Source: Candidatus Limnocylindrales bacterium
GTDB taxonomy: Bacteria; Chloroflexota; Limnocylindria; Limnocylindrales; CSP1-4
Direction of reading: 5' to 3'
Length of the DNA: 51,473 nucleotides
Assembly (NCBI GenBank): GCA_036002405.1
Contig: DASYTK010000041.1
Span: 1-51,473 of the forward strand
The position numbers and the translations under genes were made by a program. Under the pieces are notes generated by a model. The model searched no databases. It was not told where the DNA came from and was given only the letters and a program-made list of their open reading frames with translations. The first letter of the stretch is position 1, and every line of letters begins with the position of its first letter. Below, one piece after another: positions 1 to 9,018 of this stretch.

Positions 1-90
1 AGGTCACGACCGCATTAGCCGCATCCCCTTGTGCCGCATGGTGCTCCGCGCCTACCAGCTGGCAACCCGGCCCCGGCGACACGTGGTCAT

Positions 91-124
91 GCGCGTGGGC
101 TAACGCGGGTAATAGCCCACGCGC
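91..124. terminator. 12-bp perfect inverted repeat with a 10-nt loop, downstream of the integrase stop
   Basis: GCGCGTGGGCTA (91-102) and TAGCCCACGCGC (113-124) are exact reverse complements. It lies 40 nt past the frame-corrected integrase stop. No clear U-tract, so it could instead be a protein-binding site. Confidence 0.45.
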
Positions 125-163
125 GGCTGTTCCGGCGAACTCTGCACCACTCGTCTCGGCCTC

Positions 164-1091
164 CTACCGCTTCGCGCCGGCCAGGTGGTCCGCCGGCGAC
201 GCCACCGCGTGGCGGGCGACGAGATCGACGTCGGCCAGCGCGACATAGCGCTTCACCATGTCGAGCGTGGTGTGGCCGAGGATCCGCTGCAGGCTGAACA
301 CGTCTCCGCCATTGACGAGATAACTGCGGGCGAAGGAGTGGCGCAGCGAGTGCGGGGCTCAGCCGCCCGGCGATGCCGACGCGAGTCTTGAGCCGTCGGA
401 CCAGCTGCTGGATGCCGCGGGCGTCGAGCGATCCCCGCCGGCCCAGGAAGAGCGCCTCATCAGGCGCCCCGACACCGCGCTGTCCCAAGTAGCGGACGAT
501 CGCCGCGCGTGCGGTCGAGCCCACCGGCACGATCCGCTCCTTCGCGCCCTTGCCGTGCACCTTGAGGGTGCCGTCGGGTCGCAGGTCGCGGAGGCGGAGG
601 CTGGCTGCCTCGGAGACGCGGAGGCCGGTGTCGAGCAGCAGAAGCAGGATCGCCCGGTCGCGCACTGAGGCGATCGCAAGCAGCCGGCGCAGCACGTCGT
701 CGCCGACCGGCTCGACGAGCTTGTCCGGGACGCGCGGCTTGCGCAATGACCGCAGGGCGGTAGCCTCGGCGAGCTCTTCGGCCGCCAGCCAATTGCCGAA
801 GACCTTGAGCGTTCGGACGAAGCCCGCGACGCTCACAGGCGCGAGCGTCGCGCGGAGCGCGAGGATCCACTCGCGCAGCTCCGGCCCGCTGAGCCTATCG
901 AGCGGTCGCTCGTGGCCTAGGGAGCGCGCCGCGCGCAGCAGGATCATCCGATACCACTCGAGGGTCTTCGCCGCGGCGCCCTCGGCGGCCTTCGCGGCGA
1001 GAAACAGCTCGACCGCGCGGCCGAGGGTCAGCTGGCCGCCAGAATCAGGTACCCACCGATTCGGCTTGCCCGAATCAGGTGCCCGTCGCAT
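164..1091 (-). pseudogene. Tyrosine recombinase/integrase (XerC/D-like), frameshifted by one extra base
   Basis: DTGLRVSE (R) and HGKGAKER (K) lie in the first frame. After removing one base from GGGG at 354-357 the reading continues SPHSLRHSFARSYLVNGGDVFSLQRILGHTTLDMVKRYV (HxxR, H, Y) to TAG at 164-166. The ATG start at 1091 is probable. Confidence 0.85.
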
Positions 1092-1129
1092 GTCGTTCGC
1101 CTCCCGCGACGGGCCGCGGATCCGGCGTT

Positions 1130-1193
1130 CGACCACGACATCGGGTGCTCCGGCGCCTCAGCGACCACAACATCGTGTGCTTTGGCGCGGAGC
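1130..1193. repeat. Two tandem 32-nt imperfect direct repeats between the integrase start and the tRNA 3' end
   Basis: CGACCACGACATCGGGTGCTCCGGCGC (1130-1156) vs CGACCACAACATCGTGTGCTTTGGCGC (1162-1188), 23/27 identical. The second 32-nt unit ends at 1193, next to the tRNA CCA. Confidence 0.8.
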
Positions 1194-1268
1194 TGGCTGG
1201 CGAGGAAGGATTCGAACCTTCGATCTCCTGATCCAGAGTCAGGCGCCTTACCGCTTGGCCACTCGCCA
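1194..1268 (-). tRNA. trnQ: tRNA-Gln (anticodon CTG), CCA encoded
   Basis: The reverse complement folds into a cloverleaf: acceptor TGGCGAG/CTCGCCA, anticodon arm CCTGA-CTCTGGA-TCAGG, T-loop GGTTCGAATCC, 3' G-CCA. Confidence 0.97.
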
Positions 1269-1280
1269 GTGCCGTTGGAG

Positions 1281-1286
1281 ATGATA
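1281..1286 (-). promoter_or_regulatory. -10 element (TATCAT) of the tRNA-Gln promoter
   Basis: A TANNNT hexamer 12 nt upstream of the mature tRNA 5' end. Confidence 0.55.
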
Positions 1287-1423
1287 GCGGAGGCCTCCGG
1301 GCCCCCGTCGCGAGGGCCTCACCGGGACTGAGCGACGCCCCCGCGAGGGGCGAGGCGATCGGGCGGCGCTCGATTTGGGGTGGCGGCGCGCGTGATACCG
1401 AGTTGCCAGCTCGGTTCAGGCGG

Positions 1424-1606
1424 CTACTTCTTTGACCTCGACCTCGAGCGTGAGGACTTCGTCTCGCCCTTCTCGGAGCGCTCCTTGTTGACCGTTCGGG
1501 CGGCGCGCTCCTTGGCCTCTTCGGTGGAGACCCCGCGGTCCTTGTACGACTCCTTGATGTGCTCGTACTGGCGTTCGCGCTTGTCGCTCCAGGCTTCCTG
1601 CGGCAT
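1424..1606 (-). CDS. Small basic hydrophilic protein of the 'KRERQYEHIK...AARTVNKER' family, function unknown
   Basis: Strong SD (AGGAGGT) upstream of the ATG at 1606. Recognisable conserved motif WSDKRERQYEHIKES...AARTVNKER. Confidence 0.8.
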   Translation of the reverse strand: MPQEAWSDKRERQYEHIKESYKDRGVSTEEAKERAARTVNKERSEKGETKSSRSRSRSKK

Positions 1607-1837
1607 TCGATACACCTCCTGTGGCACGAGCGGCGGACGTCAGCTGCCGTCCGTGCATCCCCGAAGGGTCGACCAGGCCGGCTGCCAGCCAGGCCCCTCC
1701 GCCGGGCGCGTCACGTGTCGAACGTGTTACGGGTGCCACGCGGATGCAAGGCTGCGCGGCAGCCACCGTGCCGGGGCGTGACAGCGGGAGCAGAATCCTC
1801 ACCACGTCGGGGGGCGTAGAGGAAGGGAGGCCGCTTC

Positions 1838-2692
1838 ATGCCCACCGTACCGATCGAGAGCTGGCAGGACGCGCTCCTGGCCGCCTGGGCGTCCTTCGTA
1901 GCTGCCATCCCGGCGGTCATCGCCGCCCTGCTGATCCTCCTGATCGGCTGGGTCATCTCGAACATCCTGGCCAGGATCGCGGAAGAAGTCTTCGAGCGGC
2001 TGGGCGCCGACCGGCTGTACGCCGAGCACGGTGGCCAGCAGATCTACGGCGACGCGGGCTGGCGCTTCACCCCGAGCGACGTCGCCGCCACGGTCGTCAA
2101 GTGGGTGATCCGGATCGTCGCCCTCGTTGCGGCCGCGAACGTCCTGGGCCTGACCCAGGTCAGCCTGCTCCTCAACCAGGTGATCCTCTGGATCCCGAAC
2201 CTCGTCGTCGCGGCGATCATCCTGCTCGTCGCCCCGCTGATCGGGCGCTTCCTTCGTGGCCTGATCGAGGTGGGGGCGGGACAGATGGGCTTCTCCAATG
2301 CCCCGTTTCTCGGGCGGATCGCGGAGATCGCCGTGATCGCCTTCGCCGTCGTGATCGCGATCAACCAGATCGGCATCGCGGCGAACCTCGTGAACATCCT
2401 GTTCATCGGGATCGTGGCGGCGATCTCGCTCGCCTTTGGCCTGGCCTTCGGCCTGGGCGGCCGGGACGTGGCCGCCGAGATCACGAGGGGCTGGTATCAA
2501 ACCTCGCGCCAGGCGGCCGACAGGGTCCGCGTCGCGACGAGCGCGGGTGCGGCCGGGGGCAGGGCAGGGCGCGCTTCGGCGACGGCGCCGCGGACGCGCC
2601 GCACGACGCCGGCCTCGAGCCCGGCCAATCAGCCCACGAGCGTCGTCCGCGCGCCTCGGCGCCGCCTTCCCCGGGCACTCCCGCCCGGCTAG
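1838..2692 (+). CDS. Conserved-TM-helix repeat membrane protein (MscS-associated/CmpX-like)
   Basis: Two copies of the IP.[VL]..A.[LI]ILL[IV] helix pattern, and a C-terminal AFGLAFGLGGRD motif. SD GGGAGG precedes the ATG. Confidence 0.8.
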   Translation: MPTVPIESWQDALLAAWASFVAAIPAVIAALLILLIGWVISNILARIAEEVFERLGADRLYAEHGGQQIYGDAGWRFTPSDVAATVVKWVIRIVALVAAANVLGLTQVSLLLNQVILWIPNLVVAAIILLVAPLIGRFLRGLIEVGAGQMGFSNAPFLGRIAEIAVIAFAVVIAINQIGIAANLVNILFIGIVAAISLAFGLAFGLGGRDVAAEITRGWYQTSRQAADRVRVATSAGAAGGRAGRASATAPRTRRTTPASSPANQPTSVVRAPRRRLPRALPPG

Positions 2693-3699
2693 CGGCGGCC
2701 CAGGTTCGCCAGGTCGGTGATCGCCGCCTGGAGCTTCGAGGCGGCCGCCGTGGCGTCCTTCTTCATCTGGTCGAGGCGCGCGACGACCTGGGGGTCGGCT
2801 CCCGAGCCCCCGAAGAAGCGCTTCGCCGTCGCCTCGAGCTCCGTCGGCGTCTTGTCGCGGACCGCCCCGACCTTGGGGTCCACGTAGCCGATCACAGGCC
2901 TGGGCTTGCCCGTCGGCGAGCGCTGGATCGAGGAGACCTCGACCGCCTCGCGCTTGTCGGCCGGGCCGTACCACTCGGCCTCGGCGTTCTCGGTCATCCT
3001 GGTCAGCACGTCGTCCGAGCCCGAGTCGGCGTAGATGACGGTGCCGACCGGGAGGCGCTTGACCTTCTTCGCTGCGCGGATGTTGCCTGAGCCTTCGATC
3101 ATCGAATCGCCTCCAGAAGGACCTCCAGACGGGGCCACGGGCGGATTGCTCATCGCGATGACGAGAGAGGTCTTCGTGCCCCGAGCCTTGACCGCGAAGC
3201 GCTCGAGGGCGTCCTTGATGAGCGTCTTTGGGTAGCGCTTAAAGTCGCGGCACAGGGGGTCCCAGCCGATCAGGTCGTTGCCGGCGTCCTCGAGGCCCAT
3301 CATCGCGTGCCCGAAGGAGCCGCCTCGCTGGCACGTGTGCGGGCCACCACCGATCGGGGTGTAATCGAGCTGCCAGTTCACGGCGTGACCCGCCCGCAGC
3401 AGGCCCACCATCTCGTCGAAGTCGATCCCCATCGGGATCGCCAGCTCCAGTCCGAAGTGGCGCCAGGCCGTGGAGAGATTGCTGAGATTCGTGCCACCCG
3501 AAGTGTCGCCTGACCAGCGCCGCATCTCGGGCGGCGTCACCGCCACCCGGCCGTTCGTCTGGTCGTCAGCGAGCATCGCGCCCACGGCCAGGTTGCAGTT
3601 GAGCCCGTCGAACAGGGTCCCCCAGCGGGTCGTTCCCACCGAGCCGTCGGCGGCGTTGCGATAGAACTGGTTCCGCCGGAGCGGGCGACGCCTAGCCAC
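2689..3699 (-). CDS. Papain-fold C39-like peptidase with a C-terminal unknown domain (endolysin-like architecture)
   Basis: Candidate catalytic Cys (GLNC), His (FGHAM) and Asp (WDP), plus a GGTNL motif. A Pro/Gly linker (PPVAPSGGPSGGDS) follows. No signal peptide. The GTG start at 3699 overlaps the upstream ORF by 8 nt. Confidence 0.7.
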   Translation of the reverse strand: MARRRPLRRNQFYRNAADGSVGTTRWGTLFDGLNCNLAVGAMLADDQTNGRVAVTPPEMRRWSGDTSGGTNLSNLSTAWRHFGLELAIPMGIDFDEMVGLLRAGHAVNWQLDYTPIGGGPHTCQRGGSFGHAMMGLEDAGNDLIGWDPLCRDFKRYPKTLIKDALERFAVKARGTKTSLVIAMSNPPVAPSGGPSGGDSMIEGSGNIRAAKKVKRLPVGTVIYADSGSDDVLTRMTENAEAEWYGPADKREAVEVSSIQRSPTGKPRPVIGYVDPKVGAVRDKTPTELEATAKRFFGGSGADPQVVARLDQMKKDATAAASKLQAAITDLANLGRR

Positions 3700-3898
3700 C
3701 CTCGGGCTCCGGCAGGGTGTCGCCCGGGGCGGGAGTCGGCAGATCGTCGCCCGGGACCGCGCCGGCGTGGACCTTCCGAGGCGGCTCCTCCCCATTGAAG
3801 GGCGGATGCTCGGAGAGCGGACGCTCGTCCCGGGCACAGAGGGGATCGCTCTCCATCCCGGTGTCGGCGTCCTTCCAGACGAACTCGTGCTCGATCAT
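3692..3898 (-). CDS. 68-aa acidic, Pro-rich peptide translationally coupled to the peptidase
   Basis: SD GGAGGG 6 nt before the ATG. Its stop overlaps the peptidase start (GTGGCTAG). Confidence 0.6.
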   Translation of the reverse strand: MIEHEFVWKDADTGMESDPLCARDERPLSEHPPFNGEEPPRKVHAGAVPGDDLPTPAPGDTLPEPEGG

Positions 3899-4056
3899 CC
3901 GCGACCCTCCCGCGCTCGCTGGCGCCAGGCCTCACTCCGGCCGTCCGGCGCTCCTCGCGACCTCCTCACGCACTAGCGTCCACCGGGTGTCAATAGGGAC
4001 CGGTCACGAGGTCGATCAGAGATTGACCGGGCCGCCCGCCCACCGTTCGCTCGGCG

Positions 4057-6849
4057 TCAGTCGAGCGGCGGTAGCTCCTGGTCGTACTCGAGCGCGCCTC
4101 GGAAGGGATCGCCGGCGCGCTCGACGCGATCGGGCACGTCCCGGATCGTCCAGCGGTCCGAGCGGAGGTCCGGATCGTCGAGCTCTGCCCAGCCGATCGG
4201 GGCCGAGACGGGCGCGCCCGCGGCGGGCCGCACCGCGTACGGCGCGACGAGCGTCTTGATCTGCGCGTTCTGGGTGTAGTCGAGGCGGATCCGCCCGCGC
4301 CGGGCCGACACCGTCCACTCCCAGGAGACGAGCTCCGGTACGAGCTGCCCCACCGCCCGGGAGAGCTGCTCGACCCAGGCGCTCGTCTCGGCGAACGAGT
4401 AGCGGGGCCGGATCGGGATCCACACCTGGATGCCGCGCCGGCCCGTCGTCTTCGGGTAGGCCCGCAGACCCAGATGCTCGAGCGCGGTCCGGTAGAGGCG
4501 GGCCACCGTGAGGACCCCCTCGAAGGTCGAGCGATCACCCGGGTCGATGTCGACGTAGGCGTAGGTGGGCCGGTCGAGCGCTTCGAGTCGGGCGGTCCAG
4601 GGATGGATCTCGAACGCGGCCGAGTTGGCCAGCCAGGCCATCGTCGCCACCCGGTCGGCGATGAGGTGCGTGTTCGCCTTCCGTTCCTCGGTGTCGACGT
4701 CGGTCTCGGTCCAGCGGCGGAGCCAGCTCGGGGTGTGATCGGGCAGGTCCTTCTGCCAGAAACCGGATCCGAAGGCGCCGTTGGGATAGCGATGGAGGTT
4801 GAGCGGTCGCTCCGCGAGGTAGGGGAGGATGACCGGCGAGATCGTCACGAAGTAGCGGATCAGCTCGCGCTTCGTGATGGGGGGCTCTTTCGTGCCCTCG
4901 CGCGGCGGGAAGAGCTCCTTGTCGAGGTTCGTCAGCGCCAGCCGCTCGCCGCCGATCTCCCACGTTCCGTCCTTCTTCATCGTGTCGAGCGCCTCGAGCT
5001 CGGCCTGGGTGGTGCGGTCCGGCGGGCCCGAGCGCCTCGCCCGCGGCGCCGACCGGCCGGCGCGCCGCGGCTTCTTCTCGGGTTCCGCCCCGGGAGGATC
5101 GCTCTCCCCCCGCCGGCGAGCGCTCGCCGCGGCCCGCTCGGCACTCTTGACCGCAGCGGCCGTCGCGACCGCTCTCTCACGCGTCACCGAGGCGGGATCG
5201 CGACCGACCTCGAGACCCTTGTAGGCGCCCTGGCGCAGGAGCCCGTCGGTCGTCCACTCGCTGAACTCGACGCGAACGACGAGCCGCGGCTCCGTCCAGC
5301 GGGCGTCCTTGATCCGGACCGGCTCGTCGAAGGGTGGGTCGTCGCGGCGGATCGAGTCGAGGCTCTTGACGAGCTCGGCGCGCGTCTTCGTGTCGATGCC
5401 GCTGCCCACCTCGCCCGCGAAGACGAACCGCCCGTCCTCGTGGACGCCCAGGATGAGCGAGCCCAGGTCCTTGTGGCTGCCCTTGCCTGGCACGTAGCCG
5501 GCGACGACGAGCTCCTGCTCGCGGCGGATCTTGATCTTCAGCCAGGAGCGCGACCGCTTGCCCGGCTCGTAGTGGCCCTGACGGAGCTTGGCCACGATCC
5601 CCTCGAGGCCACGCTGACGGGCCACGTCGTGGAAGGCCTCGCCGTCGGCCTCGATGTGCGAGGCGTAGCGGACGAGGTCATGGTCTCGCAGGACACTCCG
5701 GAGCAAGCGCTTCCGCCCCTCGAGCGGTACGTCGAGGAGCGAGCGGCCGTCGAGGTAGAGGAGGTCGAAGACCTCGTAGGCGAGCGGGATCTCCGCCGCC
5801 GCGGCCTCCTTCGGGGGCCGACCCGGTTCGGTCCGTCCGTGTTCCCCGGCCCGAATGCCCGTGCGGTCCTGGAGCAGGCTGAAGTCCGGTCGGCCGTCGC
5901 GGTCGAAGGCGACAACTTCCCCGTCCACGATCGCCTCACGTGCGCGGATCCAGGCCGGTGGCCCGGTCAGGTCGGGAAAATAGCGTCCGGCGTCCTGCTG
6001 ATTGCGGGTCCACAGGCGGAGCCGGCCCTCGCTCACCACCGCCTCGACTCGATAGCCGTCCCACTTCAGCTCGAACAGCCAGTCGGGGTCGCTGAAGGGC
6101 CGGTCGGTGAGCGTCGCCTTCATCGGGGGGACGAAGTCGGGCATCGGCGCCTCGACCGCGCCCGAGAGGTCGATCGCCGCCTGGTCGGCCGGGGCGCTGC
6201 TGTCCCAGAGCACATCGGCTCCGACGGCGACCTGGTCGTTCGTCCGGCCCGTCTTCACGGAATGGGGATGGTCGTCGATGTCCCAGTCCGGGTCGGCGGC
6301 CTCGTCGCGCTTCTTGATCAGCAGCCAGTTCTCCTTGTCGCTCCCCTCGAGCGCACCCGGGCGCGTTCGGACGAGCGTAAAGCGGCCGCCGAGCTTCTCC
6401 CCGTTGAGGCGGAACTTCAGCTCACCGTCGCGGACGGCCCTGGCCGGGTCGTCGGTCTCCTCCGGCTCCCACGTGCCCCAGTCCCAGACGACGACGTCGC
6501 CGCCTCCGTACTCGCCCTTGGGGATCACGCCTTCGAAGTCGAAGTAGTCGAGCGGGTGGTCTTCGACGTGGACGGCCATCCGGCGCTGGCCTGGATCGAG
6601 CGAGGGCCCCTTGGGGATCGCCCAGCTCACGAGGACGCCGTCGATCTCGAGCCTGAAGTCGTAGTGGAGCCTGGTCGCGCGGTGGCGCTGGACGACGAAA
6701 CGCCGATCCCCGCTCGGAGGCCGCACGGCACGACCAGCCGGGCCGGTCGCTCGCTTCGTCGGGCGCCGGCGCGTCCTTCCCCGCCCTTCACCCGACGGCT
6801 CGGGGGTCTTCGTGAAATCCCGCTTGCGGCGGTATCGCTCGAGGCTCAT
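4057..6849 (-). CDS. ligD: NHEJ DNA ligase D (phosphoesterase - ATP-dependent ligase - AEP polymerase)
   Basis: PE domain HRATRLHYDFRLE...SWAIPKGP...EDHP. Ligase motifs ELKWDGYR, DGEVV, FDLL, EGIVAK. Polymerase motifs VDIDP, KTTGRRG, RLDYTQN. Confidence 0.96.
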   Translation of the reverse strand: MSLERYRRKRDFTKTPEPSGEGRGRTRRRPTKRATGPAGRAVRPPSGDRRFVVQRHRATRLHYDFRLEIDGVLVSWAIPKGPSLDPGQRRMAVHVEDHPLDYFDFEGVIPKGEYGGGDVVVWDWGTWEPEETDDPARAVRDGELKFRLNGEKLGGRFTLVRTRPGALEGSDKENWLLIKKRDEAADPDWDIDDHPHSVKTGRTNDQVAVGADVLWDSSAPADQAAIDLSGAVEAPMPDFVPPMKATLTDRPFSDPDWLFELKWDGYRVEAVVSEGRLRLWTRNQQDAGRYFPDLTGPPAWIRAREAIVDGEVVAFDRDGRPDFSLLQDRTGIRAGEHGRTEPGRPPKEAAAAEIPLAYEVFDLLYLDGRSLLDVPLEGRKRLLRSVLRDHDLVRYASHIEADGEAFHDVARQRGLEGIVAKLRQGHYEPGKRSRSWLKIKIRREQELVVAGYVPGKGSHKDLGSLILGVHEDGRFVFAGEVGSGIDTKTRAELVKSLDSIRRDDPPFDEPVRIKDARWTEPRLVVRVEFSEWTTDGLLRQGAYKGLEVGRDPASVTRERAVATAAAVKSAERAAASARRRGESDPPGAEPEKKPRRAGRSAPRARRSGPPDRTTQAELEALDTMKKDGTWEIGGERLALTNLDKELFPPREGTKEPPITKRELIRYFVTISPVILPYLAERPLNLHRYPNGAFGSGFWQKDLPDHTPSWLRRWTETDVDTEERKANTHLIADRVATMAWLANSAAFEIHPWTARLEALDRPTYAYVDIDPGDRSTFEGVLTVARLYRTALEHLGLRAYPKTTGRRGIQVWIPIRPRYSFAETSAWVEQLSRAVGQLVPELVSWEWTVSARRGRIRLDYTQNAQIKTLVAPYAVRPAAGAPVSAPIGWAELDDPDLRSDRWTIRDVPDRVERAGDPFRGALEYDQELPPLD

Positions 6850-8262: not shown

Positions 8263-9018
8263 GTGTACGTCACGCCCACCGAGCTCCGCGTCTTGCGGCG
8301 AGGATCGCTCCTCCTCCGTTTCGCGGTCCTCGATTCGATCGCCGCCGTCCTCGCCGAGTTGCCAGCGAAGGGCTCGCTCGACACGACCCTCGAGCAGCCC
8401 TGCACCGAGCCGCACTGGGGCGTCCTTCTGCGCGGGGACCTGGAGGTCGAACAGGGCGGCCAACGCCGGCAGATCCGGGCTGGCGCGGGCTTCCACGTCC
8501 CGGGTGGCGAGCCCGGTCACCGCTTCTTCGCGACGCGCCGCGCCGTGATCGCCGGCTTCGTGCCCCTCGAGGGCCGCGCCGCCGAGGATGCCCTGCCGGC
8601 GGGCGGCGCGAGCGCCGCCGTCGCCGCTGCCCCGAGCGAAGAGGCGGAGCCCGCGAGGGTTGTCGCGAAGCCACTCGCCCCCGGTGAGATCCGGTGCCAG
8701 CCGATCCCGATGGGCCCCTGGGTCTTCGCCCACGCAACGTTCGGGCCGACGAGCGGATATGGGACGGACTACTGCGATGCTCCGCACTGGGGCGTGGTCA
8801 TCACGGGCAGCGTGGCGATCGAGTTCGAGGACGACGTCGAGGTGCTGAGCGCGGGCGATTTCTATTACACGGCCCACGGGCCGCCGGGACATCGTTTCGA
8901 GGTCGCCGACGGGGCGATCATCGCCGACTTCACGCCGCGAGCCGCGCTCGAGGGATCCGTCCGGCTCGTCGAATGGCGGGAGGTTCTTCGGAGCGCGAGC
9001 CCGGTCCGGAACGGCTGA
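8263..9018 (+). CDS. Bicupin with two C-x2-PHWG cupin repeats
   Basis: CTEPHWGVLLRG...PGH and CDAPHWGVVITG...PPGH. The GTG start at 8263 follows GGAGG. Confidence 0.75.
   Translation: MYVTPTELRVLRRGSLLLRFAVLDSIAAVLAELPAKGSLDTTLEQPCTEPHWGVLLRGDLEVEQGGQRRQIRAGAGFHVPGGEPGHRFFATRRAVIAGFVPLEGRAAEDALPAGGASAAVAAAPSEEAEPARVVAKPLAPGEIRCQPIPMGPWVFAHATFGPTSGYGTDYCDAPHWGVVITGSVAIEFEDDVEVLSAGDFYYTAHGPPGHRFEVADGAIIADFTPRAALEGSVRLVEWREVLRSASPVRNG

Follow-up and report, generated by a model that had tools for sequence, protein, structure and literature searches.

We examined a 51,473-nucleotide stretch of DNA, hereafter the window (contig DASYTK010000041.1, positions 1 to 51,473 of the forward strand), from the Candidatus Limnocylindrales assembly GCA_036002405.1 of an uncultured soil bacterium, and followed a lysin-like gene, P0001, which lies at 2689..3699 on the minus strand (stop codon included; all coordinates of this gene are on that strand) and encodes 336 amino acids. 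Comparison with homologues indicates that P0001 is probably a chromosomal, selectively maintained copy of an unannotated phage endolysin family, with two starts most likely used on one messenger RNA (mRNA). The evidence centers on an in-frame ATG behind a Shine-Dalgarno (SD)-like motif, located in the linker between the two predicted domains of the protein and found at the same place in its homologues.

The gene starts with GTG at 3699 and stops with TAG at 2691-2689, and its ratio of nonsynonymous to synonymous substitution rates (dN/dS) was 0.16-0.20. The interdomain linker (residues 191-206; 3082..3129) is disordered in the full-length AlphaFold2 model, with a predicted local distance difference test (pLDDT) score below 50. 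Its protein sequence is PPVAPSGGPSGGDS-M and its DNA reads tct GGA GGt cct tct GGA GGc gat tcg ATG. The SD-like GGAGG (3110..3114), encoded by a rare GGA glycine codon and the GGC that follows, is separated by a 7-nt spacer (cgattcg) from the ATG of Met200 (3100..3102; residue 200 of 336), the proposed second start. An embedded in-frame open reading frame (ORF) runs from this ATG to the stop codon (2689..3102), and its proposed 137-residue C-terminal product begins MIEGSG. These features had been listed in a preliminary description of the DNA (the ORF, its GLNC, FGHAM and WDP motifs, the linker, GGAGG at 3114-3110, 7 nt, ATG at 3102 and the 137-residue MIEGSG product), and all of them were recovered in place.

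That description had also put forward conservation of the internal SD-ATG among homologues as a test, and the comparison bore it out. An SD-like motif followed by ATG or GTG occupied the same linker position in all 10 homologues with readable DNA, a set that includes phage proteins of 25-40% identity and one protein with an Amidase_2 catalytic domain. In three close members (P0001 and its counterparts in L007 and L008; 78-79% amino acid identity), GGAGGCG-N5-ATG was invariant at a proportion of synonymous differences (pS) of ~0.47, with the rest of the linker varying. Five distant homologues, 26-41% identical over the C-terminal part, carried an SD-like word 5-8 nt before the homologous ATG in differing amino acid contexts: AAGGGG in L009, AGGAGA in L010, AAGGAG in L011, GGGAG in L013, and AGAGG in L014. 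Two further members have valine at the site; it is encoded by GTG, and AGGGG or AGAGG lies 8 nt upstream. At the protein level, a methionine was present at the linker junction in 15 of 18 distinct proteins carrying the C-terminal domain. By these alignments, a change of catalytic domain leaves the binding module with its candidate internal start, and this retention suggests that the short product is important for the function of the binding module.

Other properties of the site also set it apart within the gene. Among the 21 in-frame ATG, GTG, and TTG codons of P0001, the internal ATG had the strongest predicted anti-SD pairing (-9.7 kcal/mol), and the annotated, coupled GTG start scored -5.8 kcal/mol, both computed with an assumed generic 16S tail. 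The host genome does use SD sequences, as GGAG/GAGG was enriched 6-10 nt before early candidate starts. GGA accounts for 9% of glycine codons genome-wide, and this rare codon is kept at the internal SD. The SD and the start lie between the catalytic and binding domains, outside the folded domains and away from the gene ends. Met200 falls within the sole long low-confidence segment of the AlphaFold2 model (residues 191-206; residues 1-8 of the short-product model), so core packing would not explain its conservation.

In the minimum-energy mRNA fold, the internal SD GGAGGCG (3108-3114) pairs with CGCCUCC (3051-3057), ~55 nt downstream. We rejected a conserved hairpin that masks the internal SD: the CGCCUCC partner was not conserved in L007 or L008, and shuffled controls folded better (z = +1.7).

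Domains and phage relatives of the lysin

Sequence searches with P0001 returned no match in Pfam (E<=1), PHROGs, NCBIfam, PADLOC, or the PDB. Likewise, tblastn of P0001 and its homologue P0006 against 50,697 phage records gave no real match, P0001-based pattern scans of IMG/VR and GTDB genomes gave no relatives, and the sole match in a profile search of the PDB was a designed propeller, which is irrelevant. A search of 1.84 billion representative proteins returned 225 relatives of P0001. The N-terminal domain (~residues 25-190) was found in two settings, either at the N terminus of proteins of 220-400 amino acids or at the C terminus of proteins of ~450-2450 amino acids.

We then modeled the full-length protein with AlphaFold2 from an 18-sequence alignment (mean pLDDT 85). 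The N-terminal domain (residues 1-190; 3130..3699) was predicted with confidence, and Foldseek placed it with clan-CA peptidases and phage lysins. Its PDB neighbors were the phytochelatin-synthase-like Alr0975, the pseudomurein endoisopeptidase PeiR, the C39 domains of ComA and PCAT1, staphopains, the C39-like structure 3erv, and a CdiA-CT toxin; its viral structural neighbors were phage lysins and peptidases, tape-measure or virion hydrolases, and a Gordonia phage endolysin. The putative catalytic residues are predicted to follow the papain order. Cys35 (GLNC; codon at 3595..3597) opens helix 35-47 and is a cysteine in every aligned homologue that covers the region. His131 (FGHAM; 3307..3309) is an invariant alignment column on strand 130-139, and the putative third residue, Asp147 (WDP; 3259..3261), is Asp or Asn in homologues and is followed by an invariant Pro148; His131 and Asp147-Pro148 lie on or after adjacent strands. 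Peptidase_C39_2 (PF13529) gave weak matches in 4 of 18 relatives (best E 1.4e-4). The model, together with its clan-CA and viral lysin neighbors, supports a papain/C39-like N-terminal domain, in agreement with the preliminary description.

Residues 207-284 (2848..3081) form a predicted SH3b-like beta-barrel, presumably the wall-binding domain, and are the region with the lowest dN/dS. The barrel's Foldseek neighbors were the bacterial SH3 structures 2kt8 and 2krs and the SH3b domains of NlpC/P60 endopeptidases (probability 0.97-0.99, template-modeling score 0.56-0.62), and a distant relative in L002 matched SH3_3 at E 0.03, below the cut-off. The remaining residues, 285-336 (2692..2847), make up a helical tail in which helix 303-335 has heptad-like hydrophobic spacing. 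Helical tails were also seen in the phage homologues of L010, L011, and L013, and helix 303-335 may be an assembly (oligomerization) element. The C-terminal domain, at first called unrecognized, appears from its predicted fold to be an SH3b-like barrel plus a long helix, a module also carried by the Amidase_2 phage lysin. From its distribution, the C-terminal domain appears to behave as a modular binding unit, presumably wall-binding, that retains its own start codon upon exchange of the catalytic domain.

The homologues themselves were found among phage genes. P0140 (L009) combines Amidase_2 with the same C-terminal domain and the same methionine; it is followed by a 60-amino-acid ORF with two transmembrane segments (6432-6614), on a contig that also carries integrase, HNH, terminase, portal, protease, and capsid genes. 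P0006 (L011, L012) comes directly after tape-measure and large tail genes, and P0079 (L013) is preceded by two transmembrane-rich, holin-like ORFs (134-770). P0095 and P0156 (L096, L097), on ~17-kb contigs with a portal gene, are preceded by a 57-amino-acid ORF with two transmembrane segments (8831-9004) that overlaps their start. Because these relatives sit in phage lysis cassettes, we assigned P0001 to an endolysin family, which by our searches is unannotated and known only from metagenomes, with no cultured-phage record matching. The earlier proposal of a wall hydrolase of phage origin is supported, as remote homologues occur in phage contigs beside holin-like ORFs and tail, terminase, portal, and capsid genes. 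The 57-amino-acid ORF of L096 and L097 sits where the window has an acidic 68-amino-acid ORF, described below.

Upstream ORF and chromosomal maintenance

This small ORF, P0002 (3692..3898, minus strand; 68 amino acids), lies directly upstream of the lysin gene and has its own SD, GGGAGGG, 6 nt before its ATG. The encoded protein is acidic (isoelectric point 4.3), contains 12 prolines and no transmembrane or hydrophobic segment, and ends in ...PEPEGG. The P0002 TAG overlaps the lysin GTG in an 8-nt stop/start overlap, GTGGCTAG (3692..3699, minus strand), that is invariant in all three sequenced relatives, and this arrangement suggests translational coupling. P0002 is conserved in L007, L008, and L015, with a dN/dS of 0.06-0.19 at a synonymous divergence (dS) of ~1, and the GG terminus is present in all four copies. 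A longer, 382-amino-acid reading of the lysin from GTG 3837 was rejected, since the extra stretch is not conserved in the lysin frame of relatives; the 3837 start is not credible because the overlapping frame holds the conserved 68-amino-acid ORF (dN/dS ~0.15). Searches of Pfam, PHROGs, PADLOC, and NCBIfam with P0002 gave no match, and we found no similarity to the ORFs upstream of the phage homologues or elsewhere in its own genome. With tblastn against the 50,697 phage records, a set in which the presence of Ms6-type phages was not checked, P0002 gave one chance-level match (E 0.8).

Both genes evolve under constraint. At a dS of 0.5-1.0, the dN/dS was 0.14-0.15 for the N-terminal domain and 0.09-0.14 for the barrel; for both genes overall it was 0.15-0.2. 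The cassette is under purifying selection and is maintained. The preliminary description had seen a raised third-position A/T content relative to flanking genes. This was not so: the GC content at third positions (GC3) of P0001 was 0.90, at the 71st percentile of a genome whose median is 0.87, and its codon-adaptation index stood at the 64th percentile. We rejected a recent horizontal transfer by codon usage, as both measures are typical of the host.

The neighbors of P0001 are LigD (6849..4057), a mechanosensitive-channel-like gene (1838..2692, plus strand), and tRNA-Gln (1194-1268), with DUF6582, cupins, a PAS/GAF histidine kinase, GH1, and PBP genes further away. The view that the lysin is stranded without holin or phage genes stands in this setting of LigD, channel gene, and tRNA-Gln. 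No portal or HK97-type capsid gene was found in the 1.0-Mb assembly, which is 54% complete. The sole phage-type gene nearby is a frameshifted tyrosine recombinase (87..1136, minus strand), 1.5 kb away on the 3' side of tRNA-Gln, which is either a pseudogene or an assembly error. Membership of the cassette in a tRNA-Gln/integrase element was rejected, given the cassette's location 5' of the tRNA, with LigD on its other side, and the frameshift in the integrase.

Gene order in L008 was the same as in the window (LigD, small ORF, lysin, channel gene), and in L015 LigD was followed by the small ORF. Relatives of LigD carry the names Candidatus Limnocylindrales, Limnocylindria, or Chloroflexota, which makes this the likely lineage, and in none of 80 such LigD loci did we find the lysin cassette. 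In three of the five relatives scanned, tRNA-Gln lay 1.3-2.3 kb downstream of LigD. The LigD-tRNA-Gln(CTG) interval of L017 and L019, from two other genera, held a convergent MFS transporter in place of the small ORF, lysin, and channel genes. From these comparisons, the cassette appears to be a lineage-restricted acquisition at a variable spot.

Proposed mechanism, alternatives, and known systems

One gene yielding two polypeptides is already a well-documented mechanism. Endolysins that use an in-frame internal start include CTP1L, CD27L, CS74L, Lys170, LysIME-EF1, LysP7951, and phi2638A (PMC4777826, PMC9430671, PMC7098653, PMC12203907). Pinto et al. predicted internal starts in about half of Gram-positive phage endolysins, with several verified, and took conservation of the site within a sequence cluster as a confidence criterion. 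The window lysin resembles these enzymes in having a catalytic domain, a linker, and a presumed wall-binding domain, an SD and a start in the linker, and a proposed short product that is the binding part alone. It differs in that its domain families lie outside Pfam and PHROGs, that it has an additional coiled-coil-like tail, and that its short product and assembly are deduced by comparison. It also differs in its host, which is Chloroflexota-like rather than Firmicutes or Actinobacteria, and in being a chromosomal copy without a holin.

The gp1-lysA pair of mycobacteriophage Ms6 offers a second parallel. In that phage, the gene just before lysA encodes a small chaperone-like protein that binds the lysin N terminus and allows holin-independent export; the lysin lacks a signal peptide, and an SD inside lysA precedes a second, embedded gene in the same frame (PMC3111421, PMC6116114). 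The window shares with Ms6 a small non-membrane ORF directly upstream, the lack of a signal peptide, and an embedded in-frame ORF, a likeness of layout only, with no homology found. However, the Ms6 short product retains the amidase domain, whereas the proposed short product of the window would comprise only the binding and helical parts, and Ms6 still has holin-like genes. As for the catalytic domain, the papain-like N5 domain of mycobacteriophage Lysin A (Bxz2 gp11) matched the B. anthracis C39-like structure 3erv and staphopains (PMC3314691). The window lysin is similar in having a predicted papain-family peptidase at the N terminus of an endolysin with the same structural relatives; as tblastn gave no match in the 50,697 phage records, any kinship would be at the superfamily level only. 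It likewise shares a predicted clan-CA fold and Cys...His...Asp order with Peptidase_C39_2, the C39 double-glycine peptidases, and the pseudomurein endoisopeptidases PeiW/PeiR, and PeiR is itself a virus-derived wall-cutting enzyme. Unlike the C39 peptidases, the window lysin has no Pfam match, ABC-transporter context, or leader-peptide substrate.

We propose that the N-terminal papain/C39-like Cys-His-Asp peptidase cuts, presumably, a peptide or amide bond of peptidoglycan, and that the disordered linker joins it to the SH3b-like wall-binding barrel and the helical tail. The first start, GTG 3699, has a weak SD and would be coupled to termination of the 68-amino-acid ORF, yielding the 336-amino-acid enzyme. 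The second start would be the ATG at 3102 in the linker, preceded by the gene's strongest SD, and would yield the 137-amino-acid binding/helical product, possibly in excess. On the model of CTP1L, Lys170, and LysP7951, this short product may assemble with the full-length chain, probably via the barrel and the helical tail, and thereby constitute or regulate the active enzyme. The acidic 68-amino-acid protein, encoded at the position of the holin in phage relatives, would most likely be a dedicated cofactor that acts on the N-terminal domain as a chaperone or else as an inhibitor, in the manner of Ms6 Gp1. Such a partner could explain how a lysin without a signal peptide and a holin is handled. 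A bolder extension strikes us as quite doubtful: that the small ORF and the lysin form a domesticated, holin-independent module for wall remodeling or autolysis in a Limnocylindria lineage. The proline-rich, acidic partner would then be a novel type of lysin chaperone or inhibitor that took over the coupled position from the holin, and the internal start would tune how much free binding subunit is made per enzyme, to serve the host and not the release of phage.

Several observations weigh against a two-start endolysin. Nucleotide invariance in the close clade rests on three sequences and is weak on its own. The GTG variant was checked in two related members only. In one phage subfamily, about half of the members have methionine at the site and the remainder have valine or isoleucine. 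We estimated chance occurrence from 550 probable coding frames of the same 1.0-Mb assembly, which contain 1926 internal in-frame ATGs. GGAGG occurred 4-10 nt before 20 of these (1.0%, or ~1 per 27 genes), and another 150 had a four-nucleotide SD core, giving 8.8% in all; by itself the motif is not rare and does not stand above chance. Linkers are also rich in Gly, Glu, and Asp codons, and these in part give rise to SD-like words. On the side of function, the SH3b Foldseek E-values were weak (~0.1), and no Pfam model, SH3 models such as SH3_3 and SH3_5 included, matched either domain of P0001. Near P0001 we found no holin or phage structural gene, and a signal peptide was also absent. With no holin beside it and no portal or capsid gene in the assembly, P0001 was classed as derived from a phage and not as a functional phage endolysin. 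P0002, for its part, has no relatives outside its clade and no detectable similarity to known chaperones.

The doubts about the start site would be accommodated if P0001 were a phage-derived lysin that makes only the 336-amino-acid protein, its linker SD-ATG being incidental to Gly/Glu/Asp-rich codons and a useful methionine. Internal ATGs preceded by GGAGG at such spacing, or by any SD core (9%), are frequent enough for this, the M-I/V-x-G motif that follows Met200 is itself conserved and hints at a role at the protein level, and half of one subfamily lacks the methionine. The prediction of Pinto et al. also flagged 15% of portal genes, so that false positives are to be expected. We nevertheless regard a single product as unlikely: Met200 lies in a segment modeled as disordered, the SD-like motif and the start occur together in every DNA-known homologue across amino acid contexts and catalytic domains, and the best SD in the gene retains a rare GGA codon. 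If the enzyme instead did not act on the wall, it might be a cytoplasmic cysteine protease or toxin-like enzyme checked by the acidic ORF, in a toxin-antitoxin- or staphopain/staphostatin-like arrangement, or a C39-type enzyme that works on or with a small Gly-Gly protein. The lack of a signal peptide and a holin would suit such an enzyme; a small acidic upstream gene that overlaps the start is the usual layout of type II toxin-antitoxin pairs, the fold neighbors include double-glycine C39 peptidases, staphopain, and the CdiA-CT toxin, and the small ORF ends in GG in every copy. Yet the relatives sit in phage lysis cassettes and the SH3b-like C-terminal domain is common to an Amidase_2 lysin, PADLOC gave no match, and the small ORF has no DNA-binding domain. 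P0002 is unlikely to be a C39-type substrate via its terminal GG because the GG overlaps the lysin start codon, which could account for its conservation, and because a C-terminal GG leaves a C39 peptidase nothing to remove. Altogether we find a non-wall function improbable. Lastly, the absence of phage genes nearby, the frameshifted integrase 1.5 kb away beyond tRNA-Gln, and the lack of the cassette from the 80 LigD loci would fit a decaying leftover of a lost prophage without present function. This is largely refuted by dN/dS, which is 0.15-0.2 at a dS of 0.7-1.0, and seems very improbable to us: neither reading frame is disrupted, diverged relatives share the gene order, codon usage is like that of the host, and the gene is on the 5' side of the tRNA, outside the expected position of a tRNA-integrated element.

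A maintained endolysin copy with two starts would add to the known systems a family in which both domains are unannotated, a likely new host phylum, a start that persists across a catalytic swap, and a maintained chromosomal copy in which an orphan partner replaces the holin. It would extend the two-polypeptide design beyond the phages of Firmicutes and Actinobacteria to a family known only from metagenomes and associated with Chloroflexota-like hosts. The copy in the chromosome evolves under purifying selection beside an orphan acidic ORF that takes the place of the holin of phage relatives, and it may be a tractable case of lysin domestication and a source of a candidate new lysin partner. 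The alignments also provide seeds for two domain families missed by Pfam, PHROGs, and NCBIfam.

Flanking genes and other proteins with the peptidase domain

The interval between LigD and tRNA-Gln (1194-4057 in the window; also seen in L017, L019, and L021) is a variable spot, and L017 has glnS between two copies of tRNA-Gln. In the window, the channel gene (1838-2692, plus strand) matched PF05552 and scored 99 bits with the NCBIfam msc model, just under the cut-off. It converges with the lysin ORF in a 4-nt overlap at 2689-2692, and the gene is also convergent in L008. The Arg/Pro-rich C-terminal 60 amino acids of the channel gene look non-coding, and the gene may actually stop sooner. We also noted a highly charged ORF of 67 amino acids, rich in Lys, Glu, Arg, and Ser, in the space from the channel gene to tRNA-Gln (1424-1627, minus strand); it matched no family, and none of the 80 LigD loci of relatives contained it. 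A scan for promoters and terminators found nothing. For the tyrosine recombinase, only the first 129 of 172 positions are reached by the match to the Pfam profile, and the catalytic tail HSLRHSFA...GHTTLDMVKRYV continues in another frame at ~165-360 on the minus strand.

The peptidase domain of P0001 also forms the C terminus of proteins of up to 2450 amino acids (P0013, P0014, P0017, P0029, P0035, and others). Pfam and PHROGs searches returned almost nothing for the 600-2450-amino-acid proteins with this arrangement; structural neighbors suggest that they are virion-associated lysins or tape-measure proteins. We observed membrane-anchored versions of peptidase-domain proteins, 610-670 amino acids in length, in related Limnocylindrales genomes (L004-L006).

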